From Gammaproteobacteria bacterium (GTDB lineage: Bacteria > Pseudomonadota > Gammaproteobacteria > UBA9214), in assembly GCA_029860045.1 (NCBI GenBank), contig JAOUBY010000005.1:1-60741 (forward strand): a stretch of 60,741 bases of DNA, in the 5' to 3' direction. This document shows, piece by piece, positions 1 to 13,569 of this stretch. A program made the translations under genes and the position numbers. Below the pieces are notes generated by a model. That model saw only the letters and a list, made by a program, of their open reading frames with translations, was not told where the DNA came from and did no database searches. The first letter of the stretch is position 1. Each line of letters opens with the position of its first letter.

Positions 1-616
1 GGCAGTCCTCGCAGGCACCGGTGGTCTGGATATGACTGGTCGACTTGCCGGTCGCAATGGTGCCGTTGTGACAGGATGAACAGTTGCCGGTCACCGTAGC
101 GTGGTCAAACAGGGCCGGGGTCCAGGCGTTGCTCGTGTGGCAATCGTCACAGGTATTGCTACTGGTGATGTGGGTTGCTGTCTTGCCAACCGCCGTGGTG
201 CCGTTGTGGCAGCTGAAGCAGGTACCCAGCACAGCGGCGTGGTTGACCTGCAGCACCGGGCTCCAGCTGGTCGTACCGTGGCAATCCTCGCAGGCACCGG
301 TGGTCTGGATATGGCTGGTCGACTTGCCAGTCGCTGTGGTGCCGTTGTGACAGGAAGAGCAGCTACCGGTCACCGTAGCGTGATCGAACAAAGCCGGCGT
401 CCAGGCATTGGTCGCATGACAATCATCACAGGTGTCATCACTGGGAATGTGATTGATCGTTTTACCCGTTGCAACCGTGCCATTGTGACAGGAGAAACAA
501 CTGCCGGTGACCGTATTGTGGTCGAACAGGGCCGGCGTCCAGGCATTGCTTGTATGGCAATCGTCACAGCTGTTGCCACTGACAATGTGATTGATCGTTT
601 TACCCGTTGCAACCGT
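1..616. repeat. Intragenic coding repeats of the multiheme cytochrome (138-bp and 279-bp periods)
   Basis: aatgtgattgatcgttttacccgttgcaaccgt occurs at 446 and 584 (138 bp = 46 aa). ggca(g/a)tcctcgcaggcaccggtggtctggatatg occurs at 1 and 280 (279 bp = 93 aa). Confidence 0.85.
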
Positions 617-1171
617 ACCATCATGGCAACTGAAACAGCTGCCGGGTGACACGCTGTCATGCACAAACAGCGCGCCGGACCAGCTCGTTGTGTTATGGCA
701 GTCCTCGCACAGAGTGCCGGCTTCTACATGACTGGTCGACTTGCCAGTGGCCTGGCCGCCATCGTGACAGCTGACACAACTTCCGGTAACGACATCGTGA
801 TTCATACGCACCAGCGGCATCCACTGTGCACTGGAATGACATTCCCCGCACAGGGGCATGGTCTTGATGTGGTCGGCCGGCAGTGTTTGCCCGGTCATCC
901 GGCTGCTGTCGGCATGACAGACATTACACTCTGCCGGCGTTCCCTCGAACACGCCACGCAAATGACAACTGGAACAGTCGGCAGCCTCGTGTGCACCTTC
1001 AAGCGCAAACCCGGTCGACAGGTGCTCAAAGCTGACAGGATTGCGTTCCGCAGCGGCCTGCGGACTGGTAAACATGGCGACGATAGCTACCAGCATCAGG
1101 GCCACACCTGCCCGCAACATAATAGCCGTCATATTTGCGGACATGCTTCGTTCCCGTGTCTTGCTGTTCAT
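1..1171 (-). CDS. Large repeat-built multiheme c-type cytochrome, PCC3-like (probably the extracellular component); 3' end runs off the window
   Basis: Absent from the ORF track because there is no stop in the window. Manual translation from ATG 1171 (alternative ATG 1144): MNSKTRERSMSANMTAIMLRAGVALMLVAIVAMFTSPQAAA (signal peptide), then 14 complete CxxCH plus a partial 15th, in ~46-47-aa diheme repeats (CxxCHxGxxAxGKxxxHIxxxxxCxDCHxxxxW...FDH). Confidence 0.93.
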   Translation of the reverse strand, partial: MNSKTRERSMSANMTAIMLRAGVALMLVAIVAMFTSPQAAAERNPVSFEHLSTGFALEGAHEAADCSSCHLRGVFEGTPAECNVCHADSSRMTGQTLPADHIKTMPLCGECHSSAQWMPLVRMNHDVVTGSCVSCHDGGQATGKSTSHVEAGTLCEDCHNTTSWSGALFVHDSVSPGSCFSCHDGTVATGKTINHIVSGNSCDDCHTSNAWTPALFDHNTVTGSCFSCHNGTVATGKTINHIPSDDTCDDCHATNAWTPALFDHATVTGSCSSCHNGTTATGKSTSHIQTTGACEDCHGTTSWSPVLQVNHAAVLGTCFSCHNGTTAVGKTATHITSSNTCDDCHTSNAWTPALFDHATVTGNCSSCHNGTIATGKSTSHIQTTGACEDC

Positions 1172-1196
1172 GGCTTCATACCCGTCATCACCCGCT

Positions 1197-2783
1197 TCAG
1201 CGCATCTCTGCCGATTCAAATGACTCTGCGTCATGGCAGCGCTCACAGTGACGACCGAACTGTCCATCGTGGATGTCATCCTGGCGGTGACATCCGTCGC
1301 AGCTTGTTGTCATGCTGATACGGCGTTTGGCCGGCTGCTTGTGACAGGCGTGGCAATCGATGCCCTGATGCCCTCCATCCAGACGGAAATCGGTACCTGC
1401 ATCATGATCGAACTCCCACAATGACCAGGCGTTCGGGTTGTGGCAGGTCTCACAGTTCGGACCGAGCCGTTGCCGGTGCACATCGCCGTCCTGGTGACAG
1501 GTGTTGCAGTCGCCCGGCGCATCGGTAAACAACGCGGACAAATGACACTCCTCACAGGGAGTAACTGCGTGCAGTCCGATCAGCGGAAAGTTCGTCAGGT
1601 CATGATCGAATCGCAGCTGTCCCGCCCAGCCACTCTCGTTATGGCAACTACCGCACTGCTCGCCCAACTTGCCCGCATGCACGTCATCCGGCTTGTGGCA
1701 GTCCTGACACTGCGTACCCAGTTTCTCCTCTTCCAGCTCACCGCGGTGGCATGCACTGCAGAGCAACTCATCGTGCCGCCCGCGCAGCAGAAAATCCGTC
1801 TTGGCATCATGATCAAAAACCATTTTTTCCCATCCGCTGGTTCGGTGACAGGAATCACAACGCTCACCATATCGCTCCCTGTGCACGTCATCATCGCGGT
1901 GACAGGAAACACAATCGGTTCCCAGTTCACGATCAAATGAACCATCACTGTGGCAGGTGTCGCAGGCAACCTTCCGGTGTTTTCCGGTTAACGGATAATC
2001 AGTATTCCTGTCATGATTGAAGCTGATACGTTTCCAGCCCTTTTCTTGATGACAGTCAGCACACTCCGCACCATAACGGCCTGCATGCACATCATTGAAA
2101 CGGTGACAGGCATGGCACTCCGTAGCCGTATCTTCATACTGTTGGTCAACATGGCAGCTATTGCAGGCCACCTCGGCGTGCTCACCATGCAAGGCGAAAT
2201 CTGTCTCGTTATGGTCGAAGTCCTGTCTGCGCCAACCCTGTGCGGTATGGCAGTCATCGCATTGCTCGCCAAGGTTTTCCCGGTGAATATCATCTTTGCT
2301 GTGACATGAAATACAGCGGTGTTCTGCACTGCGATACTTTTTTCCGATTGCATGGCATGCCACGCAATCTGTTCCGGCATGCGCTCCTTTCAGCGCATAA
2401 TCCGTCTGTTCGTGATCAAACGTTTCCCTGCTGAACTGCACGACAATTGCATCGCGACCCTCGTGATCATCGTGGCAGCTACTGCAGCTTTCCTTGCCTG
2501 CCCGGGTGCGACCGTGAAACCCCTTGTTTTCCTTCACATCGTCAGCCACATCCTCGTGACAATCCAGGCACAGCACATTCTGGCTTCCCTTGCTGAATGG
2601 ACGATGGCAGCGACTGCATTCACTCTCGTACTTCGCATGCCCCTGAATGAGCTTCCCGGGCATCACCAGCGATTCAATGCCGGCGGCATATGCCTTGTCA
2701 CTGTTAGCAAACATCATTACAGGCATGGACATCACCAGAATCAGGACCAGTCTCTTCACAACTACCGTCGTCACACGTGTCAA
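1197..2783 (-). CDS. 21-heme periplasmic multiheme cytochrome c (PCC3-like, triheme repeats)
   Basis: Signal peptide and 21 CxxCH motifs. Repeated triheme unit FDHxxTxFxLxGxH..CxxCH..CxxCHxxDDxH..CxxCH..W. Confidence 0.95.
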   Translation of the reverse strand: MTRVTTVVVKRLVLILVMSMPVMMFANSDKAYAAGIESLVMPGKLIQGHAKYESECSRCHRPFSKGSQNVLCLDCHEDVADDVKENKGFHGRTRAGKESCSSCHDDHEGRDAIVVQFSRETFDHEQTDYALKGAHAGTDCVACHAIGKKYRSAEHRCISCHSKDDIHRENLGEQCDDCHTAQGWRRQDFDHNETDFALHGEHAEVACNSCHVDQQYEDTATECHACHRFNDVHAGRYGAECADCHQEKGWKRISFNHDRNTDYPLTGKHRKVACDTCHSDGSFDRELGTDCVSCHRDDDVHRERYGERCDSCHRTSGWEKMVFDHDAKTDFLLRGRHDELLCSACHRGELEEEKLGTQCQDCHKPDDVHAGKLGEQCGSCHNESGWAGQLRFDHDLTNFPLIGLHAVTPCEECHLSALFTDAPGDCNTCHQDGDVHRQRLGPNCETCHNPNAWSLWEFDHDAGTDFRLDGGHQGIDCHACHKQPAKRRISMTTSCDGCHRQDDIHDGQFGRHCERCHDAESFESAEMR

Positions 2784-3739
2784 TACATATGAACTGCATA
2801 GACATGAATGACACCCGACAGCAACAACATCACGAATAATGGCAGGTGCAGCACATGCCAGAGTGCAAACAGGCGTTCATAAAATGTGAAGCCGGCAACC
2901 CGCCGGATGGTTTCCAGGTAACTTCGCAGATAAAAGCGGCTGCTCTGGCGCAGAGAGTGGAGCTGCCTGTTATCAATCCCGCCCTGCCGCTTGAGAATTC
3001 CGAGTGCACGACGCAGGCGGATACCGGCAACAAGACCGCACCAGCGGGACTTGACCCAGGTTGCAAGCACATGGACAAGACTGCCAATCAGCCCGTGCGG
3101 AAGCTGCAGTGTCTGACGTTCGAGCCGAACCAGGTTTTCACTCAGGGCTGGCATGACATCAAACACAACTTGCATGGATTTCCTCAGTGCTACGGCGTCG
3201 CTGCCCAGGTGCGCAAGATCGGCCTTCCTGCCATACAGACCGTAGTGCACCCGTGTATAAAAATACCTTCCCACCAACCCGCTGGAAGCCACCAGCAGCA
3301 TGCTGAACAGCGCCACATTCCCGTTCATGGAACCCAGCTGGAAGTTACAATGATAAAGAATACAAACCGGTCCAATAATTCCCATCAGCATGTGCATGCG
3401 AAACCAGTGCCGTACACGACCCAGGCGCCGCATCCAGCCGGCATGCTTTCGCAACGGATACAGAAGCAGTAGCAGCATCATGATCGCCCCGGCTATTCCC
3501 AGTGCATATCCCGCGCCCTGCTCCGGTGACAGATAGACATCACCCCGCCGCTGCCAGCCGGCTGCCAATACCGCTGCTACCGCGGCATAGAACAACAGGG
3601 TTCGCCAACCCCGGACCGCCATCGAGCGCAAGCGCTCGTTACGACCCGGATCTGCCTCGTTTGCGGCGGCCCGCGGCAGCTCAACGAGCTGTTCCGCAAC
3701 CAGGCTTCCGGTGCCCGATGATACGTTTTCCGGCTTCAT
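2780..3739 (-). CDS. Inner-membrane protein of the multiheme cluster (His-rich TM helices, possibly heme b binding)
   Basis: About 5 hydrophobic helices. His in or near helices (WFRMHMLMG, ILYHCNF, WHVLHLP, IHVYAVH). Overlaps the 21-heme gene by 4 bp. Start placed at ATG 3739. Confidence 0.8.
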   Translation of the reverse strand: MKPENVSSGTGSLVAEQLVELPRAAANEADPGRNERLRSMAVRGWRTLLFYAAVAAVLAAGWQRRGDVYLSPEQGAGYALGIAGAIMMLLLLLYPLRKHAGWMRRLGRVRHWFRMHMLMGIIGPVCILYHCNFQLGSMNGNVALFSMLLVASSGLVGRYFYTRVHYGLYGRKADLAHLGSDAVALRKSMQVVFDVMPALSENLVRLERQTLQLPHGLIGSLVHVLATWVKSRWCGLVAGIRLRRALGILKRQGGIDNRQLHSLRQSSRFYLRSYLETIRRVAGFTFYERLFALWHVLHLPLFVMLLLSGVIHVYAVHMY

Positions 3740-3787
3740 GTCAGTTTCACCCAGGGTCCACAGCAAACCGGTTTACGCACTGAATTC

Positions 3788-3803
3788 CGTGAACCCCATC
3801 ACG
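3788..3803. promoter_or_regulatory. CRP-like box
   Basis: CGTGA-ACCCCA-TCACG, upstream of the membrane-protein/multiheme operon. Confidence 0.5.
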
Positions 3804-3960
3804 GATACAGCCCTGTACCACCTCATTAATCGCTGCATATTGACCGTCACTCTGTGTCATTACATGTCCCTGCCAGGCATACGGATCAGACCGTCGCATC
3901 AGTATCCGTGTGCTGCCGACCGGTTTCTGAGAAACGAGTCAAAAATACGTCGCCCGTAAC

Positions 3961-3976
3961 TGTGACCGCCATCACA
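3961..3976. promoter_or_regulatory. CRP box (perfect core)
   Basis: TGTGA-CCGCCA-TCACA. TATTGT at 3998-4003 fits class II (-41.5) spacing for the 4098 gene. Confidence 0.65.
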
Positions 3977-3979
3977 TTT

Positions 3980-3995
3980 TGGGAATATATTCCCA
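3980..3995. promoter_or_regulatory. Perfect 16-bp palindrome, possible operator
   Basis: TGGGAATATATTCCCA lies directly between the CRP box and the candidate -10. Confidence 0.4.
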
Positions 3996-4097
3996 TTTAT
4001 TGTAGAATGCAATCCATCGTTACATGCCGGTAATCCACTGCCGGCACATTGAGCCCCGGAGCAGAAATCCGGGAGAAAACCGGATCGCTTCCCTGCC

Positions 4098-5399
4098 ATG
4101 ACCGAACACCTGATCATTGTTTATGGCCTTCCGATGCTGTTGATATGGGCCGGCTACCTGACATTGCGCAACCTGAAACAGTCCAGGGCGCATTCACAGA
4201 TGCTGGCCGCGCAGGCAGCCGGACTCACCCAACCGGCATCACTGCATCCCGTGATCAATAGCACTGTGTGTATCGGCTGCAGCTCCTGCATCAGTGCATG
4301 CCCGGAACAGAACGTGCTGGGCCTGATCCGCGACAAGGCCGAACTGATCAACCCCACGCACTGTATCGGACACGGCGCCTGCAATACTGCCTGCCCGATG
4401 AATGCCATCAGCCTGGTATTCGGTACCGCAGAACGCGGCGTGGACATTCCACTAGTGTCTCCGGATTTCGAAACCAACGTACCGGGCATCTATATCGCCG
4501 GTGAACTCGGTGGCATGGGGCTGATACGCAACGCGGTGGAACAGGGGCGCCAGGCAATGGCATCTATTATCCGTTCACGCCGGCAGCAAACCGGGCAGCA
4601 GCTCGATGTGCTGATTGTCGGTGCCGGACCGGCCGGACTGTCGGCCAGCCTGGCCGCACACGAGCAGGGCCTGCGCTACATCACCGTTGAACAGGACTCG
4701 CTGGGCGGCACGGTTGCGCACTTCCCGCGCGGCAAGGTAGTCATGACTGCACCGGTCAAGCTGCCAATCGTCGGGAAAATGAATTTCAGGGAGGTATCCA
4801 AGGAAGCCTTGCTGGAATTCTGGGAGAAAGTCATAGCTGACACTGGCGTTGACATCAATTTCAGCGAACGCGTCGAAACGATCAGTCCGGAAGGTAAAGG
4901 ATTTGCGGTAAAGACGGCATGCAATAGTTACCAGGCCGCGTCCGTGCTGATTGCCATTGGCCGGCGCGGCACACCACGCAGGCTTGGCGTGCCTGGTGAA
5001 GATTCTGCCAAGGTCGTGTACCGGCTGGTTGACCCGGAACAGTATCGCGGGCAAAGCGTGCTGGTCGTTGGCGGGGGCGACAGTGCACTGGAAGCCGCGG
5101 CAAGTATTGCCGAACAACCCGGAACCTGTGTCAGCCTGTCCTACCGCAGCGCATCATTCTCTCGGGCCAAGGAGAAAAACCGTATCCGCGTGGCTGAACT
5201 CAGCGACAGTGGCAGACTGAAAGTGCTGATGTCCTCCAATGTCATGTCCATTAACGATGCTGATGTTGTCATCGAGCAACAGGGCACACAGATACAACTG
5301 GGAAACGACGCGGTTATTGTCTGCGCAGGCGGCATACTGCCCACCGCATTTCTTCAAAAGACCGGCATCGAGGTAGAAACAAAATATGGCACCAGCTGA
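4098..5399 (+). CDS. Membrane-anchored ferredoxin-domain FAD/NAD(P)-dependent oxidoreductase (TrxR/YpdA-like)
   Basis: N-terminal TM helix. CIGCSSCISAC and CIGHGACNTAC ferredoxin motifs. TNVPGIYIAGE, GAGPAG and VVGGGDSA nucleotide-binding motifs. Confidence 0.88.
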   Translation: MTEHLIIVYGLPMLLIWAGYLTLRNLKQSRAHSQMLAAQAAGLTQPASLHPVINSTVCIGCSSCISACPEQNVLGLIRDKAELINPTHCIGHGACNTACPMNAISLVFGTAERGVDIPLVSPDFETNVPGIYIAGELGGMGLIRNAVEQGRQAMASIIRSRRQQTGQQLDVLIVGAGPAGLSASLAAHEQGLRYITVEQDSLGGTVAHFPRGKVVMTAPVKLPIVGKMNFREVSKEALLEFWEKVIADTGVDINFSERVETISPEGKGFAVKTACNSYQAASVLIAIGRRGTPRRLGVPGEDSAKVVYRLVDPEQYRGQSVLVVGGGDSALEAAASIAEQPGTCVSLSYRSASFSRAKEKNRIRVAELSDSGRLKVLMSSNVMSINDADVVIEQQGTQIQLGNDAVIVCAGGILPTAFLQKTGIEVETKYGTS

Positions 5400-7449
5400 C
5401 ATGACCAGGAGCACCTGGCATACATTCCCCCTGGGCGTCATGGCGACGCTGGCGCGTGTCTGCCTGCTTTGCATGCTGTCAGCACTGTGCAACCCGTCAG
5501 TTACGCTTGCGGACACTACCAAACTGGATGAATACCATGCCGCGGTACGTGTGCGCGACATGGACAGGGCAGCGAAAATTCTCTTGCCGCTGGCCAGGGA
5601 CGGCATGGCGGAGGCCCAGTACCAGCTGGCCGCGCTGTACCGCTCGGGCAATGGAGTAGAAAAGGACCACCGTATGGCATTCCAGTGGCTGCAGAAGGCA
5701 GCTGCACAGGACCATGCACAGGCACAGTACAACCTTGGTGTCATGTACGAACAGGGCTGGGGTACCGAAGCAGATTCGAAGAATGCCTTGCACTGGTACC
5801 GGCTTGCCGCCAGCCACGGACACAAAATGGCTGTCCGTAAACTGGAAGACACTCCTGCAGACAATGCAATTCAGAGTGATGTCAGCGCAGAAGAATTGTT
5901 ACGCCGCGCGGTCATCAGGGACGACCTGTCATCCACCCGTTCCCTGCTTGTGGCCGGCGCGGATGTCGATAGTAGCGACGATTACCAGAGAACAATCCTG
6001 ATGGATGCCGCAGAACTGGGTAACCCCGAGATCTTCGCACTGCTGGTTAGCCACAGCAGAAAACCGGACTTACAGGATGCCAGCGGCGAAACCGCTCTGC
6101 ATATCGCAGTCAGTAACGACCGCCAGCCGATCGTAAAACTACTGCTTTCAGCGGGGGCCAGCGCCGGCATCGCGGATCAACGCGGTAACACGCCACTTAT
6201 GATTGCCGCCGGCAGAAACCAGCTCACCATTTTCAGAGCACTGCTTGACAGTCACTCACGCCCCGAAGCCAGTAACAGCGCCGGACTGACGGCTGCTGAT
6301 ATTGCTGCGCGCAAGCAAAACGAAAAAATCCTGAAACTGTTGTCGGGGCATGGCATATACCCTGCCCGAAGCCATACAAAGTCACCCGCACATGCCTCGG
6401 AACTGCTCGCTCTGCAGGAAGAAACAGCGGCAGACAGACCTTCACCGCAGCATGCCATGTCTCCACTAAACGAGGCAGCATGGCGCGGACAGGAAAACAT
6501 CGTGCGCGAACTCATCAGGCAAGACGCCAGCATCAACAGCCGTGATAGCGAAGGTCATACCGCATTGTCGCGCGCCGCATGGAAGGGACACAGTGCAATT
6601 GTCGAATTACTCCTGGACAGTGGAGCCCGCGCGGACATTGTACTCGATGGCGGCATAACGCCGCTGATGTACGGCACGCTCTCGGGTGATGATGCTACGG
6701 TTGTTGCATTACTGGATAGCGGCGTTGATACCAACGCCCGACAGCACGACGGACGCACCGCATTACACCTGGCTGTAGCCGGCGACTACACAGATATTGT
6801 CCGGCTACTGCTGTTACATCAGGCCGACATCGCGCTGGCCGATTCAGATGACAGAACCGTGCTGATGCTGGCAGCGCAGCTCGACAGTCCGCACATACTG
6901 GGAGACCTGCTGGACCGCAACCCCGCCATCAATGCCCGCGACCGCAATGCACATACGGCACTCTGGCACGCAACCCGCAATGGGCTGCCACGTAACACCG
7001 GTTTACTGCTGCAGCGGGGCGCCGATCCGGAGGTTAGTGACCGCAAGGGTCATACCGCGCTGACACTGGCTGCCTCACGGGCAGACAAGGTAATCGCCAA
7101 GCAGCTGGTCAGGCACAAGGCCGATATCAACGTCCGCACCCATGATGAAAACACGCCCCTGATGCTGGCCGCACAGGCGGGTGCTGACGGGCTTGCACAA
7201 CACCTGATCGATTCCGGCGCCGAGGTGAATGCCAGGAACCGGCAGGGCGATACCGCGCTGATGCTGGCCGTCGCCCGTGGCGAGACGGTAACTGTCCGCA
7301 CCCTGCTGGAAGGCGGCGCGGATCTGCGCATCCGTAACAACAGCCGCGCACGGGCACGCGATATTGCCACCGCCGGGGGTTACGACAATATATTAGATCT
7401 GCTGAATAAACATGAGTCCCGGTCCAGCTGGAAGGCCAAATGGTTCTGA
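5386..7449 (+). CDS. Exported Sel1-repeat plus ankyrin-repeat protein
   Basis: Signal-like N-terminus. Sel1 repeats (AQYQLAALY..G.GV, AQYNLGVMY..G.G). Many ankyrin repeats (GxTAL/TPL..A). Confidence 0.9.
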   Translation: MAPADMTRSTWHTFPLGVMATLARVCLLCMLSALCNPSVTLADTTKLDEYHAAVRVRDMDRAAKILLPLARDGMAEAQYQLAALYRSGNGVEKDHRMAFQWLQKAAAQDHAQAQYNLGVMYEQGWGTEADSKNALHWYRLAASHGHKMAVRKLEDTPADNAIQSDVSAEELLRRAVIRDDLSSTRSLLVAGADVDSSDDYQRTILMDAAELGNPEIFALLVSHSRKPDLQDASGETALHIAVSNDRQPIVKLLLSAGASAGIADQRGNTPLMIAAGRNQLTIFRALLDSHSRPEASNSAGLTAADIAARKQNEKILKLLSGHGIYPARSHTKSPAHASELLALQEETAADRPSPQHAMSPLNEAAWRGQENIVRELIRQDASINSRDSEGHTALSRAAWKGHSAIVELLLDSGARADIVLDGGITPLMYGTLSGDDATVVALLDSGVDTNARQHDGRTALHLAVAGDYTDIVRLLLLHQADIALADSDDRTVLMLAAQLDSPHILGDLLDRNPAINARDRNAHTALWHATRNGLPRNTGLLLQRGADPEVSDRKGHTALTLAASRADKVIAKQLVRHKADINVRTHDENTPLMLAAQAGADGLAQHLIDSGAEVNARNRQGDTALMLAVARGETVTVRTLLEGGADLRIRNNSRARARDIATAGGYDNILDLLNKHESRSSWKAKWF

Positions 7450-7498: not shown

Positions 7499-7561
7499 AT
7501 GTTGTGACATTGAGCTTGCAACATCTCCCACACTTCGCGGGCCTTGTGCCCGCGTCTTTTT
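7499..7561 (+). ncRNA. Candidate anaerobically induced small RNA
   Basis: FNR box at -41.5. 5' hairpin 7499-7524, CU-rich linker CTCCCACACTT, then an intrinsic terminator. No ORF recognised. Confidence 0.5.
7536..7561 (+). terminator. Rho-independent terminator
   Basis: CGCGGGC-cttgt-GCCCGCG followed by tcttttt. Confidence 0.75.
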
Positions 7562-7606: not shown

Positions 7607-8065
7607 TTAGCGCGCACTGAGAACGTCGTGAAAGATCGATCGCAGATCGCTCTCCCAGCGCGCAAAGAAAACAGGATCAATCGCATCACCTGCAATCCGG
7701 GCATACACTCCCGGGTTAATCGTCACCAGCACTGTCTGTCCGCCCTCGGCAAAAATGGAGATTTTCGGGGGCATGTAGGGGATCAGCTGCGGCGCCTTCT
7801 CTGTCAACATGCGGATTTCATCGATCTTGCCGGCAAACACGATACGGTACTTGTCAGTCGGGTAACCCATGCCGGTCAGCCCGATATCAATACGCTGCAC
7901 CCGTGATACCGTGTAGCCATGTCCGGTAATGGATTCCTGCAATGCCAGCATGGTCTCGGGAAACGGTAACACCGAACGTATCATGATCATGTCTTCAGCC
8001 GCTGCCGTCACCGTGACCTGTAGTAACAGCCACACCAGCAGCACTTGCAGAGTACTTTTTCTCAC
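7607..8065 (-). CDS. DUF302-like exported protein
   Basis: GTG 8065 overlaps the upstream stop. Signal peptide. DUF302-like pattern (FPETM..L..SI..HGY.V; P.KISIF.EG..T.L..INP). Confidence 0.72.
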   Translation of the reverse strand: MRKSTLQVLLVWLLLQVTVTAAAEDMIMIRSVLPFPETMLALQESITGHGYTVSRVQRIDIGLTGMGYPTDKYRIVFAGKIDEIRMLTEKAPQLIPYMPPKISIFAEGGQTVLVTINPGVYARIAGDAIDPVFFARWESDLRSIFHDVLSAR

Positions 8066-9096
8066 AGCGTCGCCTCCTCCATGATCTCCAGGTACACCGC
8101 GCGCATGCGCCTGCAATATTCATCCAGATCGGAATTGTTAAACAGGTGACTGAGGTACGGGGGGTTAAGGGTACTGATGGTCACCTTGCCGCCCTGCTCC
8201 GTTACCGTGACCCGGCAGGGCAGGAATATACCCACACGCGGGTCAACTGCCAGCGCCTCATACAGGAACCTGAAATTACAGAAATGCAGGATGACCTGCT
8301 GCTGGTTCTCCTGCGCTTTCTCTACCAGTCCGTGTTCCAGGGTATCGGACCGGATCAGGACGAAATTCTGGCTGATGATGGCCTGTTTGAGGTTTTCGAC
8401 GGTTTCCTCAATCGAGTAAGGTGAGTCAACCGTTATTGTCGCCAGTTCACCGGTTTTATCTGCTGCCTTGACGGGGTCCTTGCTCTCGAAGGACCTCACG
8501 TAACTGACCAGGTCATCGATATCGCGCTCGGACAGGCCCTGCTCAAGGAAGGAACGCATTGGCGAGCCTTTACGCCCGAACTGCAAGGTGTGCTTTATCA
8601 TGGCGTCTGTCGCGGCGCGCAGGAAGCCGCTGTTGTTGAGCGCCGGCGCAATAATTGGCTGGTCCCGATGACGTGAAAGGGTAATACCTGTCCCTCTCCC
8701 CCCCTCGCCACTGGCCCCGTGACAACCTGCACAACGGGTGGCAAACAGTGCCTTGCCATGCTGCGCATCGCCCGACACCGGTGTCGACGCGTAAACCGGA
8801 GCCGGTTGCTTCGACCAGCTACGTATGAAGGCCACAATCGCGTTGGTCTGCGCATCACTCAATGCACTGAAGGCAGGCATGACCCGGCCGGGGCGTCCGT
8901 AACGTATGCTGATAGCCAGAAACCGGTCATCGACGCTGTCGAGAAAGGACGGCAACGACAGCGGCACACCGACACCACCACCGCCCTTGTCGCCATGACA
9001 GGCCGCACAGTGGCTTGCATACAGGGCCGTGCCATCCGGCGCAGCAACGGCAACCAGGCTAACAGCAAGTAAAAAAAGTCCAATAATCAAACGCAT
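8062..9096 (-). CDS. Diheme cytochrome c fused to a DUF302 domain
   Basis: Signal peptide. CAACH..MP and CAGCH..M motifs. C-terminal DUF302 (ETVENLKQAI..FCN..LPCRVTV.E..G.VTI). Confidence 0.85.
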   Translation of the reverse strand: MRLIIGLFLLAVSLVAVAAPDGTALYASHCAACHGDKGGGGVGVPLSLPSFLDSVDDRFLAISIRYGRPGRVMPAFSALSDAQTNAIVAFIRSWSKQPAPVYASTPVSGDAQHGKALFATRCAGCHGASGEGGRGTGITLSRHRDQPIIAPALNNSGFLRAATDAMIKHTLQFGRKGSPMRSFLEQGLSERDIDDLVSYVRSFESKDPVKAADKTGELATITVDSPYSIEETVENLKQAIISQNFVLIRSDTLEHGLVEKAQENQQQVILHFCNFRFLYEALAVDPRVGIFLPCRVTVTEQGGKVTISTLNPPYLSHLFNNSDLDEYCRRMRAVYLEIMEEATL

Positions 9097-9181
9097 AATC
9101 AGGATAATCTCCCGTGGGCGCACACCTTTAATAATAAGAAATCAACGTTATAATAATATTATCATATATATGTATGTTTTT

Positions 9182-9195
9182 TTGACGCAGGTCAA
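9182..9195. promoter_or_regulatory. FNR-type box in the divergent cytochrome c/sgp promoter
   Basis: TTGAC-GCAG-GTCAA. Confidence 0.55.
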
Positions 9196-9272
9196 TGCTC
9201 CTTGGATCCAATTCAGCAATCATAATGCTGTCTATAATTCTGTATGGACTCATTGTAAAGGAGGATTTACCG

Positions 9273-9698
9273 ATGAAAAGCTTGAAAATGACAATTGCAA
9301 TTGCCGCAATCGCCGGACTGGCCGCACTGCCGATGACATCTGCCCATGCATGGGGTGGTTGGGGTCCGTGGAGCGGTAATAATGGCTGGGGCAACGACGG
9401 TTGGGGCGACGGCAGTGGCGACTTCGACGGCGACTTCAACATGGGCTTCAGCGGCGGCGGCCGGGGTTCCGGCTACGGTCGCGGTTACGGTCGTGGTTAT
9501 GGTCGAGGCTATGGTTATGACGGTTATGGGCCGGGTTACGGCTACGGCGGCTATCCGGGCTACGGCTACGGTGGTGGCTACCCGGGCTACGGCTACGGTG
9601 GTGGCTACCCGGGCTACGGCTATGCGCCGTACGGCGGTGTTCCCTATGGCGCACCAGCAGCTCCGGCCGCTCCGGCCGCTCCGGCCGCCAGCCAGTAA
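9273..9698 (+). CDS. Sulfur globule envelope protein (SgpA/SgpB-like)
   Basis: AGGAGG RBS. Signal peptide ending [31 protein letters not shown], then G/Y/P-rich repeats and an APAAP tail. Confidence 0.8.
9546..9623 (+). repeat. 27-bp coding tandem repeat (GGYPGYGYG x3)
   Basis: ggyggctayccgggctacggctacggt units inside the sgp-like gene. Confidence 0.8.
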
Positions 9699-10448: not shown

Positions 10449-10699
10449 TTTGCACTGAAAATGCCGCTCGCATGAGACATGCGGGCGGCGCCTGCCGTCC
10501 GGCAACCCCCTGATTCCCATCCACTCTTCTGAATTTCCTACCGGCACTTAATAGATGACGGACAGGTGCCGTTATATATCAGTGTTGTTTGCATAGTCAG
10601 TATTTGACAGGGTCCATGTCGACCCCTGCAGGCACACCTCATCATCAAGACACGCAGGCCCGCACAAGGCAACAGGCCTGCCAAAACAAGGTACCGACG

Positions 10700-12355
10700 A
10701 TGACACCGTATACGAAAACACTGGTTGGCCATCTCACAAACGTCGAGACCGGGTCGCTTTCCGCGCGCCTGGTCGAGGACAACGAGGGCAGACTGCCACG
10801 CATTTCGGCCGATGGAGATGACGATATGAGGGCCCAGCCCGGCTCCTACGTCGCCATCATCCAGGGCGACATCCGGATACTGGCCGTCATCACCTCGATC
10901 TGTGAAATGCCGGACCCGAACGGCTCGGGTAGCTGCAGGAGCATTCAGCTCATCCCGCTGGGCGAAATTGTACGCAGCGGCACCTTTCAGAACGGTATCA
11001 AGAGCTACCCGGTCACCGGCGCCGAAGTACACACCGTCGACAAGGAAGATGTTGAATCGATCTTCATCAAGTTTCGCTCACAGGGTTACGCAGTTGGCAA
11101 TGCCACCGCTGATGAAAGCATTGATGTCTGCCTCGACCCGGCCGCACTGTTTGGCCGTCACTTTGCGATCCTGGGCCAGTCAGGTGCAGGTAAATCCTGG
11201 ACTGTAGCCAACCTGTTGCAACGCGCCGTCAAGACCATGCCCAATGCGCACATCGTCCTGCTCGACCTGCATGGCGAATACAGCTGGCTGAATAATGAGG
11301 GCAAACGGCAGTATGCATTTACTCAGGATACCGCCCGCTATATCGATGCACGCGACCTGGAAATTCCCTACTGGCTGATGACCTTCTCCGAGCTGGTCGA
11401 CCTGCTGATCGATCGCGCCGATGCGTCAGCCTCATCACAGATTTCTTTTCTGCGCGACAGCGTGCATGAGCTGCGCAACAAGGCGAACAAGGACCTCGGC
11501 ATCGGCGATTTATCAATCGACGCGCCGGTCTTCTTCGACCTGCAGGAGTTGTATAAACACTTCGAGGCCGCCAACAAGATGACCTCGAACTTCGGCAAGG
11601 ACAAGGGTCCGCTGGCCGGCCTGTTTGACCAGTTCCTCATGCGCCTGCAGAGCCGCATGAACGATGTGCGTTATGACTTCCTGCTCAATCCGAAGCATCG
11701 CACCTCGTCTGATACGCTGCCCGGCCTGTTGCGGGACTTTGTCGGCCTGGGTGAGCCACGCGCACAGATCACCATTATCGACATGAGTTCGGTGCCGTTT
11801 GATGTGCGCCCTGTAGTAACTGCGCAGGTCGGACGTGTTGCGTTCGAATTCAACTACTGGAACCCGATGTTCAAGGAATTCCCGCTGTTGCTGGTCTGCG
11901 AAGAGGCACATGCCTACATTCCGCGCGATGGCAACTCGCAGTTCGAGGGTACCCGACAGTCCATGCAACGTATCGCCAAGGAGGGACGCAAGTACGGTGT
12001 AGGCCTTGCCGTGGTGACACAGCGTCCGCATGACCTGTCCGAAACGGTACTGGCCCAGTGCAATACCTTCGTTTGCCTGCGCCTGACCAACCCGGACGAC
12101 CAGGATTACGTGCGTGATCTGGTACCGGAAGCCGAGCGTGACTTTATCGACATCCTGTCATCGCTTGGCCAGGGTGAGGCCATGATCATGGGGTTGGCAG
12201 TACCTCTGCCGACTCGCGTACAACTGTTCAAGCCGGACCCGCCACCGAACAGTTCCAGCGTGGATTTCTACCAACACTGGAGCTCCGGGCTGGAAGATCT
12301 CGATGTGGATGATATTGTGAATCGCTGGCGCCGGCAGGACCGCCTGCACCGCTAG
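10700..12355 (+). CDS. HerA/DUF87-family P-loop ATPase
   Basis: N-terminal HAS-barrel-like region. RHFAILGQSGAGKS (Walker A), LDLHGEY, LVCEEAH (Walker B), KEGRKYG, TQRP. Start uncertain (10589 or 10700). Confidence 0.88.
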   Translation: MTPYTKTLVGHLTNVETGSLSARLVEDNEGRLPRISADGDDDMRAQPGSYVAIIQGDIRILAVITSICEMPDPNGSGSCRSIQLIPLGEIVRSGTFQNGIKSYPVTGAEVHTVDKEDVESIFIKFRSQGYAVGNATADESIDVCLDPAALFGRHFAILGQSGAGKSWTVANLLQRAVKTMPNAHIVLLDLHGEYSWLNNEGKRQYAFTQDTARYIDARDLEIPYWLMTFSELVDLLIDRADASASSQISFLRDSVHELRNKANKDLGIGDLSIDAPVFFDLQELYKHFEAANKMTSNFGKDKGPLAGLFDQFLMRLQSRMNDVRYDFLLNPKHRTSSDTLPGLLRDFVGLGEPRAQITIIDMSSVPFDVRPVVTAQVGRVAFEFNYWNPMFKEFPLLLVCEEAHAYIPRDGNSQFEGTRQSMQRIAKEGRKYGVGLAVVTQRPHDLSETVLAQCNTFVCLRLTNPDDQDYVRDLVPEAERDFIDILSSLGQGEAMIMGLAVPLPTRVQLFKPDPPPNSSSVDFYQHWSSGLEDLDVDDIVNRWRRQDRLHR

Positions 12356-12372
12356 GGAAAACTACCCGGCGG

Positions 12373-13569
12373 CTATCCGGCCGCCTCTTCCTCGATCAGT
12401 TCGTCGCGCCCGATCAGGCGCAGGATCTGCTCGCGCGCGGCAAGCCCGTCCTTGTATCCAAGTTCCATCAGTTCCTTGCAGAACGGCGCGTCAAACATCA
12501 GGTAACTCATCAGTGGTCGGCCCTCGCGCGTCAATGCGCCAATCCCCTTGAGCAGGACGCGTACCGAGCGAGGGAAGTCACCCACGTGCCGGGCCACGAT
12601 CTCGCGCACGTCGGTACTCGGTGAAATTACCAGGTAATCGATCTGGCGCAGCGCTGTATCCTTGTACTCGACGCGGTTGTCCTTTGTTTCGGAGATGGTG
12701 TGGTTGATGCGCCGCATCCGTTCGATGTCAGCATCCAGGCTGTCCATGAACAGGCTGTCAAAGATATAACCGGAAATCTGCCCAAAGGAAGGATATTTGA
12801 CATCACGGTCGTCTTCCGGCGGCATGTCCTGTTTCGGGTTCCTGACACCGATAATCAGCAGGCGGTTGGCACCCATGTGCAAGGCCGGGCTCAGTGGCGC
12901 GGTCTGGCGCATTGAACCATCCCCGAAGAATTCATTGCGCAACTTGACGGCAGGAAACAGCACCGGGATTGCCGAAGACGCCATCAGGTGGTTGAGAGTC
13001 AACTCGGTTGGTTGCCCGATGCGGCGGGTACGCTTCCAGGGCTGCAGCTCCTTCAGCCCCTGGTAGAAGGTGACCGAGTTGTCACTGGTATAGCCGGATG
13101 TAGTTACTGACACGGCGCGCAAGGCGCCGCTGTCTATTGCCTGCTGGATTCTGGCAAAACGGATATGCCGTTCCATCAACTCGCGCAACGGTGAATTGTC
13201 CAGTACCGACCGGGGCTGCTTTTTTGTCAGCCCGCCGAGCAGGAACGTGGTGGCCCAGCGCCAGGCGCTGACGAAGGCCGTCCAGCCATCGGTCTTGAAT
13301 ACCTTGCCGATATGAAAGTTGGCCCAGATCCCCCACAGGCGGTCGACACCTTCCCTGAAACGGTTTGCACTGCTGGCCAGCAAGACGGCATTCAGCGCCC
13401 CTGACGAGGTGCCGCAAATCACCGGAAACGGGTTTTCCGCGTCTTCCGGCAGCATGTCGGCAATCGCCTTCAGTACCCCGGCCTGGTAGGCATTACGCGC
13501 ACCACCGCCCGGCAGGATCAGCCCCGTGACCTGCTCTTCCTGCTTCTTTTTAAATGAAATCCAGTACAT
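12373..13569 (-). CDS. Patatin-like phospholipase
   Basis: GGGARNAY glycine loop, GTSSG nucleophile, SSAIP..FP and DGS motifs. Confidence 0.92.
   Translation of the reverse strand: MYWISFKKKQEEQVTGLILPGGGARNAYQAGVLKAIADMLPEDAENPFPVICGTSSGALNAVLLASSANRFREGVDRLWGIWANFHIGKVFKTDGWTAFVSAWRWATTFLLGGLTKKQPRSVLDNSPLRELMERHIRFARIQQAIDSGALRAVSVTTSGYTSDNSVTFYQGLKELQPWKRTRRIGQPTELTLNHLMASSAIPVLFPAVKLRNEFFGDGSMRQTAPLSPALHMGANRLLIIGVRNPKQDMPPEDDRDVKYPSFGQISGYIFDSLFMDSLDADIERMRRINHTISETKDNRVEYKDTALRQIDYLVISPSTDVREIVARHVGDFPRSVRVLLKGIGALTREGRPLMSYLMFDAPFCKELMELGYKDGLAAREQILRLIGRDELIEEEAAG

Follow-up and report, generated by a model that had tools for sequence, protein, structure and literature searches.

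Where do the electrons of a PCC3 porin-cytochrome cluster enter or leave the cell on the cytoplasmic side? This question is raised by the left end of a 60,741-nucleotide stretch of DNA from a Gammaproteobacteria bacterium (assembly GCA_029860045.1, contig JAOUBY010000005.1, positions 1 to 60,741; "the window" below means the whole of this stretch). There, genes for an inner-membrane protein (IMP) and two multihaem cytochromes lie divergent from a gene for a membrane-anchored flavoprotein with ferredoxin, FAD and NAD(P) domains (FdxFAD). We consider it fairly probable that FdxFAD and IMP form a split transmembrane NAD(P)H:cytochrome oxidoreductase, resembling NADPH oxidases (NOX) and ferric reductases (FRE), which would constitute the inner end of PCC3 and would send electrons outward. 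The features of the locus are the following.

2-1279, minus strand: N-terminal part of the outer, repeat-rich multihaem cytochrome, cut by the contig end; 14 CxxCH motifs, signal-peptide-like start
1197-2783, minus strand: periplasmic 21-haem cytochrome c, 528 residues, with signal peptide; 21 CxxCH motifs, cytochrome c7/c3 Pfam families
2780-3766, minus strand: PCC3 inner-membrane protein (IMP), 328 residues; PCC3 motifs and five predicted transmembrane (TM) helices
3767-4097, no strand: divergent intergenic region of 331 bp, with a palindrome and a promoter-like site
4098-5399, plus strand: membrane-anchored flavoprotein FdxFAD, 433 residues; N-terminal TM helix, Pfam families Fer4_10, Pyr_redox_3 and Pyr_redox_2
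5386-7449, plus strand: Sel1-ankyrin repeat protein, 687 residues; Sel1 and ankyrin Pfam families
7536-7554, plus strand: terminator-like GC-rich hairpin with a T run, 3' of the Sel1-ankyrin gene, from a consensus scan only

A preliminary description of the window had named these five genes, and all five are open reading frames (ORFs) of the window where it had placed them. Its haem counts were correct (21 and 14 CxxCH motifs, the latter a minimum), its portrayal of the divergent protein as a TM-anchored ferredoxin/FAD/NAD(P) protein is borne out by the Pfam domains and the N-terminal helix, and the coupling to the Sel1-ankyrin protein that it noted takes the form of a 14-nt overlap between the start of that gene and the end of the FdxFAD gene. 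To call the membrane protein His-rich was generous, as it holds 13 His among 328 residues; yet seven of them (H125, H139, H174, H304, H307, H321 and H326) are invariant in 128 relatives. The minus-strand genes are closely packed, the TTG start of the 21-haem cytochrome gene overlapping the stop of the IMP gene. Counted from its next Met, IMP is 319 residues long, matching the database record. The truncated cytochrome ORF matches the Pfam families Cytochrome_C7, Cytochrom_c3_2 and Paired_CXXCH_1, and its true start is probably an internal Met near position 1171. The scan that gave the terminator-like site found 9 such sites in the region against 6.4 expected, which makes it weak evidence.

Linkage and fusion of FdxFAD to the PCC3 inner-membrane protein

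PCC3 has been defined by a porin, an extracellular cytochrome (median of 34 haem motifs), a periplasmic cytochrome (median of 21) and an IMP of ~300 residues with five TM helices, an SGXXG motif on TM4 and WX3HX13H motifs on TM3 and TM5 (PMC5566968; here and below, statements on the PCC3 literature refer to the portions of the papers available to us). The same study, from 2017, likened the His pattern of IMP to ferric reductase/NOX domains and to cytochrome b, proposed that IMP is a di-haem protein exchanging electrons with quinones, and listed iron oxidisers, sulfur oxidisers, tubeworm symbionts and sediment bacteria among the carriers. The cluster has been surveyed in Gallionellaceae (PMC9900912), and later papers treat it as four genes of untested function and as a candidate conduit for iron oxidation (PMC9900912, PMC8788666, 10.1101/2025.02.27.639646). 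In the window, IMP displays WFRMH-x13-H (H125/H139), SGLVG (residues 162-166) and WHVLH-x13-H (H307/H321), all invariant in 128 sequences. The orthologue of the 21-haem cytochrome holds 21 CxxCH motifs in 33 of 38 relatives' loci, and the outer cytochrome of the relatives' loci holds from 5 to 89; the repeat-rich outer cytochrome of the window appears to be of the extracellular type. The resemblance to PCC3 that had been suggested for this locus is thereby upheld, given that the IMP motifs, the 21-haem cytochrome, the repeat-rich outer cytochrome and an outer-membrane protein gene (see below) fit the published definition. Judged by its genes and motifs, the locus at the left of the window represents the inner half of a porin-cytochrome cluster of the PCC3 type.

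To follow the flavoprotein across genomes, we used loci found with an IMP alignment search, which returned 563 loci in species-representative genomes; 80 of these were analyzed. A full FdxFAD homologue (at least 400 bits, 55-94% identity) was present near the IMP gene in 70 of the 80. It lies divergent upstream of IMP in 57 loci (median gap 421 nt), upstream on the same strand in 9 (in the order FdxFAD, Sel1-ankyrin, IMP) and beyond the porin in 4. Thus, the linkage between FdxFAD and IMP survives rearrangement. One of the remaining 10 loci carries an FdxFAD fragment and nine lack the gene, four of the nine having less than 4 kb of upstream DNA. Among the five loci without FdxFAD despite a 10-kb upstream flank, four have the gene elsewhere in the genome, two of them on the same contig just past the flank. 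The carriers are labeled as Gamma- and Alphaproteobacteria, 'Deltaproteobacteria', Nitrospira, Nitrospinaceae, Myxococcota, Thermodesulfobacteriota and Omnitrophota.

For co-occurrence, 401 genomes sampled evenly from the class were searched, with thresholds of E<=1e-10 for IMP and E<=1e-40 for the flavoprotein. The latter gave 49 matches, of which two were removed as paralogues (34% identity, frames of ~780 residues). Of the genomes, 48 carry IMP and 47 carry FdxFAD: 44 have both, 4 IMP only, 3 FdxFAD only and 350 neither, with kin genomes in the sample being non-independent and no test statistic attached to the counts. Of the three FdxFAD-only cases, one has its gene at the end of a contig, one has a fragment of it on a small contig, and one is a genome that is 72% complete. 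According to the place tables, both genes share one contig in 40 of the 44 genomes. In three genomes, moreover, IMP and FdxFAD are both present in two copies, each FdxFAD gene beside an IMP gene of its own. FdxFAD is also the best conserved protein of the cluster (median identity of 61%, against 43% for IMP), and the distance matrices of the two proteins are correlated (Mantel r 0.60, reached by 0 of 999 permutations), as is expected of co-inherited genes.

The reverse approach, a metagenome scan seeded from two flavoprotein motifs, yielded 80 loci, 54 of which contain IMP: in 13 the two proteins are encoded in one open frame, in 26 on opposite strands, in 12 adjacent on the same strand and in 3 farther apart. 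The pairing of membrane protein and flavoprotein across genomes, which the preliminary description had raised as a point to check, is therefore confirmed from both sides and by the genome tally, and the refuting condition named there, flavoprotein homologues unlinked to such clusters, does not hold. On this genomic evidence, FdxFAD is a constant partner of IMP and not a chance neighbor.

Fusions provide the most direct link between the two proteins. Among 404 proteins of at least 759 residues matching FdxFAD at E<=1e-60, we inspected the best 120. Of these, 87 match the IMP hidden Markov model in their C-terminal part (48-88 bits) and show the WX3HX13H motif twice there; multihaem cytochrome domains are present in 6 (in one case together with an IMP-like domain) and other extensions, for instance TPR or a kinase domain, in 28. 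Alignment of the IMP family with 33 fused proteins by hhalign gave a probability of 99.8% (E 9.5e-29) over 256 columns, covering fusion residues 487-757. Single-polypeptide FdxFAD-IMP proteins, anticipated as a possibility when the locus was first described, are thus common, counting these 87 of the best 120 long relatives and the 13 metagenome frames. Nine of the 13 fused metagenome genes are directly followed by a homologue of the 21-haem cytochrome, usually with a second cytochrome next; the frame that follows holds 20 CxxCH motifs in 7 of the 9, 30 in locus L103 and 14 in L106, where it is cut by the contig end.

Several further observations concern the long relatives. The six proteins joined to multihaem domains are P0131, P0137, P0165, P0184, P0185 and P0164, with 18-20 CxxCH motifs in four of them within the rows listed; P0129 and others join FdxFAD to long TPR regions (~1,100-1,200 residues), and P0130 joins it to a protein kinase domain. 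A phylum-level sample searched with a fused protein gave matches in 5 of 401 genomes, all unfused. In the fused-type cluster L104, the ORF 3' of the second cytochrome matched no Pfam family.

Predicted properties of FdxFAD and IMP

FdxFAD carries two Fe-S motifs, CxxCxxCxxxCP and CxxHxxCxxxCP. Residues C58, C64, C68, C89, H92, C95 and C99 are invariant in 68 sequences and C61 is conserved in at least 90% of them, so that one of the two cluster sites has an invariant His (H92) at a usual Cys-ligand position; the fused forms have a Ser at that position of the first motif as well. The FAD-binding GxGxxG (G175, G177, G180) and the NAD(P)-binding GGGD(S)A (G325-G327, D328, A330) are likewise invariant. 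The nearest solved structures are YpdA/Bdr and reductases of the thioredoxin reductase (TrxR) type, including ferredoxin-NADP+ reductases (2zbw, 5ygq, 3ab1, 7a76, 7a7b), to which the FAD/NAD(P) module aligns over ~260 residues with E values from 7e-24 to 1e-20. The only cysteine motifs in FdxFAD are the two Fe-S motifs, with no TrxR CxxC, and the Bdr cysteine (GGGPCG) aligns with Ala179, which is conserved in at least 90% of the relatives. Because the Fe-S, FAD and NAD(P) motifs are invariant, the CxxC is absent and the Bdr cysteine is replaced by Ala, FdxFAD reads as an electron-transfer reductase, and it looks like a ferredoxin-reductase-type electron module with its own ferredoxin. A role as a disulfide reductase of the TrxR or YpdA/Bdr kind was considered and rejected, as the redox-active cysteines are missing and the scores fall far under the curated NCBIfam cut-offs (160.7 bits, against 339.9 for YpdA).

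The N-terminal helix of FdxFAD is followed by a basic stretch. Among 69 orthologues, 58 pass the hydrophobicity mark, and the fusions keep both elements. Helix and basic stretch together would place the Fe-S and flavin domains, as well as the N-terminus of IMP, in the cytoplasm. Residues 124-151 of FdxFAD (FETNVPGIYIAGELGG), N-terminal to the FAD Rossmann motif, were aligned by HMMER to the C-terminal FAD motif of YpdA/Bdr. The alignment of FETNVPGIYIAGELGG hints at a circular permutation, at a score below 0 bits, which is not significant.

IMP matches no family in Pfam or NCBIfam, and its relatives fill more than 4,500 database clusters. An AlphaFold2 model built from 128 sequences (predicted local distance difference test, pLDDT, 84.4; predicted template modeling score, pTM, 0.76) is all-helical with long helices, TM4 and TM5 being separated by a helical insert of ~120 residues; this model was used in place of a first, poor one from 17 sequences (pLDDT 64.8). 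From the distribution of charges, we infer that the loop before TM3 and the TM4-TM5 insert are cytoplasmic and the C-terminus periplasmic. Because the loop and the insert are placed in the cytoplasm, H125 and H307 would be near the inner face of the membrane, with their partners H139 and H321 toward the outer one. The long IMP relative P0126 has a c7-type trihaem domain at its C-terminal end, in agreement with a periplasmic C-terminus in contact with c-type haems. IMP is a candidate transmembrane di-haem b carrier: it holds two HX13H pairs, predicted to be bis-His haem sites, and has an attached flavoprotein by both linkage and fusion, as would be expected of a NOX-like system.

To assess contact between the two proteins, the complex was modeled from the alignments of both, with two haems and two Fe-S clusters included; the calibration is rough for such inputs. 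The complex score was 0.47 (runs of 0.54, 0.47 and 0.44), against 0.00 for the best control. All runs had a contact agreement of at least 73% and a partner pLDDT of at least 73. Among 80 solved complexes, 58 reached the mark for this score, as did 2 of 110 mismatched pairs; at values of 0.60 or less, only 7 of those 80 did so, together with both mismatches. Of the complex that the preliminary description had in mind, the FdxFAD-IMP contact therefore finds weak support in the model. Taken alone, this counts for little; the fusions had already set a high prior for such contact.

The rest of the cluster and the host

The window begins at base 1 of its contig (C80), which makes leftward extension impossible. 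Another contig of the same assembly, C64, opens in frame with the C-terminal 315 residues of a repeat cytochrome of the same kind, with 12 CxxCH motifs, followed by genes for a 152-residue secreted protein, an 816-residue outer-membrane-type protein with SPOR and TPR regions, and a DUF6502 protein. In the relatives, the gene order is IMP, 21-haem cytochrome, outer cytochrome, small protein, outer-membrane protein and sometimes DUF6502. Because this order matches, C64 was taken as the continuation of C80, and the assembly would have broken inside the tandem haem repeats of the outer cytochrome. These repeats are rich in T, S, G and A, of the CxSCHNGTxATGK...CDDCH kind. Summed over both contig ends (14 and 12), the cytochrome would hold at least 26 CxxCH motifs.

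The 816-residue protein starts with a signal peptide, contains a SPOR domain and TPR repeats, and ends in YRADF. Its PDB sequence matches are confined to the TPR part; its Atlas neighbors are SPOR/TPR proteins, with a PelB-type barrel only at a score of 0.83. Homologues are encoded 3' of the outer cytochrome in 41 of 80 relatives' loci. The porin that the first description expected to the left of the window thus has a counterpart in an outer-membrane-type gene 3' of the outer cytochrome, on C64 by a synteny-based join and likewise in the relatives, which counters the refuting condition of a cluster with no porin. The 152-residue protein (L003:950-1408) and the N-terminus of the 816-residue protein (L003:1432-1700) have a similar domain of ~100 residues, with weak cross-matches. 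The DUF6502 protein (L003:3910-4758) has a helix-turn-helix-like stretch and is possibly a regulator of PCC3. DUF6502 was found in 95 of 401 class genomes, namely in 35 of 48 IMP-positive and 60 of 353 IMP-negative ones (the tally includes the unpublished genome G296). A PCC3-specific regulator was rejected on this count: DUF6502 is enriched but far too widespread.

The Sel1-ankyrin protein accompanies FdxFAD in 63 of 70 loci. Its N-terminus is signal-peptide-like here and in 42 of 47 orthologues, so the protein should be periplasmic. Homologues of the Sel1-ankyrin protein, the small protein and the 816-residue protein were detected in 0 of 25 fused or same-strand clusters; these absences leave FdxFAD, IMP and the 20/21-haem cytochrome as the conserved core. 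The Sel1-ankyrin protein may accordingly be pictured as a periplasmic accessory, a scaffold or an assembly factor, of a PCC3 subgroup, outside the minimal electron path.

The divergent intergenic region contains a perfect 16-bp palindrome, TGGGAATATATTCCCA, at 3980-3995, overlapping a promoter-like site at 3979-4008 on the plus strand. The motif TGGGAA-N4-TTCCCA (at most 2 mismatches) is present in the 300 nt preceding the FdxFAD gene in 17 of 68 relatives' loci (L005, L008, L013, L014, L083 and others), including two in which that gene is not adjacent to IMP. Its density is 0.84 per kb upstream and 0.039 per kb over whole loci, a difference of about twenty-fold. The palindrome is likely the operator of a regulator.

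The host genome encodes dsrA and two RuBisCO genes. It had been described as an apparently sulfur-storing, H2-oxidizing denitrifier; hydrogen oxidation is matched by an Isp-type NiFe hydrogenase in the window and denitrification by genes for cytochrome cd1 nitrite reductase, with sulfur storage being presumptive. These genes belong to a denitrification/hydrogen island at 16984-60741, which contains two cytochrome cd1 nitrite reductase genes, a third gene with a cytochrome d1 haem domain, haem d1 maturation genes, NnrS, a NirT-type tetrahaem protein fused to an ethylbenzene-dehydrogenase-like domain, a haem-copper oxidase-type gene, the Isp-type NiFe hydrogenase with an HdrD-like subunit, and Hyp maturation genes. 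Directly past the Sel1-ankyrin gene, on the opposite strand, 7607-9123 (minus) encodes a dihaem cytochrome c-DUF302 fusion and then a second DUF302-like protein. A secreted Gly/Tyr-rich repeat protein (GYGRGYG and a second kind of repeat) with no family match is encoded at 9195-9698 on the plus strand; it may resemble the envelope proteins of sulfur globules and would then fit the remark on sulfur storage. At 10589-13569, a HerA-type ATPase (DUF87) adjoins a patatin-like phospholipase on the opposite strand, a pair that is unrelated to PCC3 and may be of a defense type.

Proposed electron route, rival explanations and known systems

We infer haem b, FAD and Fe-S occupancy, the contact of the two proteins, and the path, quinone independence and direction of electron flow in the following form. 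NAD(P)H would reduce FAD at the cytoplasmic face; electrons would pass from FAD to the two Fe-S clusters, one of them with the conserved His at a ligand position, and on to the inner-face haem b of IMP. From the inner haem b they would cross the membrane to the second, outer haem b, and then move through the 21-haem periplasmic wire to the outer cytochrome, by way of the outer-membrane protein. The usual direction would be outward, carrying cytoplasmic reducing power to an extracellular acceptor and bypassing the quinone pool. The characterized systems in which a cytoplasmic NAD(P)H flavoprotein serves a bis-His di-haem carrier in the membrane (NOX, FRE and MsrQ with Fre) send electrons outward, and the membrane potential favors outward and opposes inward electron flow. 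The outward direction is favored because of this analogy, of the membrane potential, and of the behavior of Sideroxydans ES-1, in which both PCC3 clusters are down-regulated on Fe(II) relative to thiosulfate (PMC8788666). The preliminary description had left both directions open and named the inward route to NAD(P)+ first; that order is reversed here on thermodynamic grounds, its outward option being the favored one.

A number of observations weigh against the outward NAD(P)H:cytochrome oxidoreductase. On the protein side, IMP had no match to the PF01794 profile (Pfam, E<=0.01), a whole-genome search with that profile finding another gene, on contig C120; hhalign of IMP gave 1.6% with a NOX-like alignment (3 sequences, shallow) and 0.9% with an MsrQ-like one (4 sequences, shallow); and Foldseek of the IMP model against the PDB had a best E of 0.34, the 50 best-ranked chains listed including none from NOX, STEAP or cytochrome b. 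A search for longer relatives from the IMP side gave 7 proteins, none with an FdxFAD domain; they have low-complexity, SPOR or TPR extensions at the N-terminus, and one has a c7 domain. As regards linkage, genome G404 (locus L075) has IMP and no detected FdxFAD, three or four genomes of the class sample are in the same position, and one flavoprotein-seeded metagenome locus with at least 4 kb of DNA on both sides (L157) is without IMP, the only one so flanked among the 26 of 80 in which IMP was missing. At the outer end, no exact overlap was found between the start of C80 and any contig end, and contigs of four sediment/estuary runs aligned to window positions 1-1500 gave no bridge to C64; in these contigs, which include those of the probable source run, the repeat region is shattered into short variant pieces with internal skips and go-backs. 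With respect to physiology, the host is by its genes a sulfur- and hydrogen-oxidizing autotroph, for which costly NAD(P)H fits badly with an outward 'dump'. Finally, PCC3 has been called functionally unverified, and the IMP gene of one PCC3 copy is up in iron-oxidizing cells of Sideroxydans CL21 (10.1101/2025.02.27.639646), while HX13H pairs also occur in the quinone-reactive cytochrome b of bc1, making a quinone site thinkable (PMC5566968).

Because every test of membership in the NOX and ferric-reductase families failed, we treat IMP as its own family, detectably belonging to neither. A PDB sequence search with the IMP profile likewise gave chance matches only (E 0.09 and 0.51). The NOX-like hhalign alignment does set H125 and H139 opposite the NOX-like His pair, and the nearest Atlas cluster of IMP is automatically named 'ferric reductase like', which is a lead only. 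The classical single-chain NOX-like protein of the genome is encoded on contig C120 (L093:661-2061, minus strand; 466 residues), with a PF01794 domain carrying two HX13H motifs and an FAD/NAD domain of the ferredoxin-NADP+ reductase (FNR) type.

The failed membership tests and the bc1-like HX13H pairs would suit an explanation in which IMP is a quinol- or quinone-reactive cytochrome b, and FdxFAD and the Sel1-ankyrin protein are helpers, which might bring reductant through the membrane for maturation, haem or thiol reduction or repair, or might sense redox state. The nearest solved relatives of FdxFAD include reductases of thiol systems, Sel1 and ankyrin repeats are protein-binding modules of the kind that suits an assembly factor, and the cytochromes to be repaired would be those with 21 to 89 haems. 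We nevertheless regard helpers as rather unlikely. A fusion to IMP in 87 of the best 120 long relatives, directly 5' of a 20-haem cytochrome, is unexpected for a helper; FdxFAD lacks the catalytic cysteines that TrxR and Bdr have; the absence of the Sel1-ankyrin protein from all 25 fused or same-strand clusters makes it dispensable for the core; and even a maturation role would still need an electron path from FdxFAD to IMP. That the flavoprotein and cytochrome operons are functionally unrelated neighbors strikes us as extremely improbable. They are divergently transcribed in the window, and no RNA data set is listed for positions 1200-7449; against this stand the linkage through rearrangements, the co-occurrence, the paired duplicates and the fusions, a conserved palindrome common to the divergent promoter region, and single open frames on 13 independent contigs, which argue against fusion artifacts.

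The evidence from linkage and fusion is neutral as to direction, and the same machine could run inward, with minerals or sulfur outside the cell, cathodic surfaces or partner cells as donors and NAD(P)+ as the acceptor, sparing a lithoautotroph reverse electron transport. The host and many PCC3 carriers are lithoautotrophs in need of NAD(P)H (habitats in PMC5566968), and the response of the IMP gene in CL21 points the same way. Such a flow would work against the membrane potential with no coupling subunit seen in the cluster, and PCC3 genes fell on Fe(II) in ES-1 (PMC8788666). Reduction of NAD(P)+, at about -320 mV, would moreover call for donors well below that potential, much stronger reductants than Fe(II), sulfide or even H2, unless energy were supplied in another way. 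We know of no characterized flavoprotein/di-haem system that runs inward, and we hold this direction to be unlikely. We give still less credence to PCC3 with FdxFAD as a reversible wire between the outside and the NAD(P)(H) pool, with quinones bypassed, which would work inward with reducing donors and as an outward vent under acceptor limitation. If it were true, lithoautotrophs could reduce NAD(P)+ from cathodic minerals, conductive particles or partner cells without reverse electron transport.

The PCC3 cluster type was already known; its flavoprotein and Sel1-ankyrin partners, the fusions and the operator-like motif are apparently unreported. The available main text of PMC5566968, supplementary gene tables aside, contains none of the terms FAD, flavo, Sel1 and tetratricopeptide, and the available portions of PMC5566968, PMC9900912, PMC8788666 and 10.1101/2025.02.27.639646 make no mention of a flavoprotein, a ferredoxin domain, Sel1 or an ankyrin protein. 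Our literature search found no paper linking a flavoprotein to PCC3; in PMC13013709, 'PCC3' has a different meaning. The uncharacterized route that had been proposed for this host is thus not specific to the organism, but appears to be a general and apparently unreported property of the whole PCC3 family. Having FdxFAD as a steady, at times fused, partner of the inner end would shift the model of PCC3 from 'outside to quinone pool' to 'cytoplasmic pyridine nucleotides to outside', or the reverse. It would offer an explanation for PCC3 not behaving as an iron oxidase in transcriptomes (PMC8788666), and it advises caution in using PCC3, a widespread cluster type, as a marker of iron oxidation. 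It also supplies a biochemical handle, an NAD(P)H-dependent cytochrome reductase assay, for which the natural single-chain fusions should be easier to express. If true, bacteria would possess an equivalent of NADPH oxidase that is connected to a multihaem cable, a form of extracellular electron transfer that we have not found described.

Among systems for extracellular electron transfer, MtrCAB and MtoAB with CymA and the Geobacter conduits with ImcH or CbcL have, like this cluster, a porin with a periplasmic and an outer multihaem cytochrome as a wire across the outer membrane. The MtrCAB/MtoAB and Geobacter porin-cytochrome conduits are fed by inner-membrane quinol dehydrogenases (CymA; ImcH and CbcL). 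Unlike in those conduits, IMP is here paired with an NAD(P)H-type flavoprotein, and the periplasmic cytochrome is a single 21-haem protein, discussed as long enough to span the periplasm (PMC9900912). With published PCC3, the locus has in common the IMP features, the 21-haem cytochrome, the repeat-rich outer cytochrome and the outer-membrane gene. As published, PCC3 comprises four genes and is modeled as far as the quinone pool (PMC5566968), whereas here there are two extra conserved genes and an operator-like palindrome, and the inner end is linked or fused to the flavoprotein.

FdxFAD itself has the same fold with two dinucleotide-binding domains as the TrxR-type ferredoxin-NADP+ reductases, which likewise lack a redox-active CxxC; it differs from these and from YpdA/Bdr in its membrane anchor, its built-in two-cluster ferredoxin domain and the His at a ligand position. 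As a pair, FdxFAD and IMP resemble NOX and FRE in design: a pyridine-nucleotide flavoprotein of the cytoplasm is joined, in split as well as fused forms, to a membrane part whose two predicted bis-His haem sites (an HX13H pair on each of two helices) would carry electrons across. However, FdxFAD is of the thioredoxin-reductase type with a two-cluster ferredoxin domain, whereas the NOX flavoprotein is of the FNR type, and the domain order of the FdxFAD-IMP fusions is reversed, with the flavoprotein first. The proposed acceptor would be a multihaem cytochrome wire, in contrast to the O2 or Fe(III) chelates that serve NOX and FRE.

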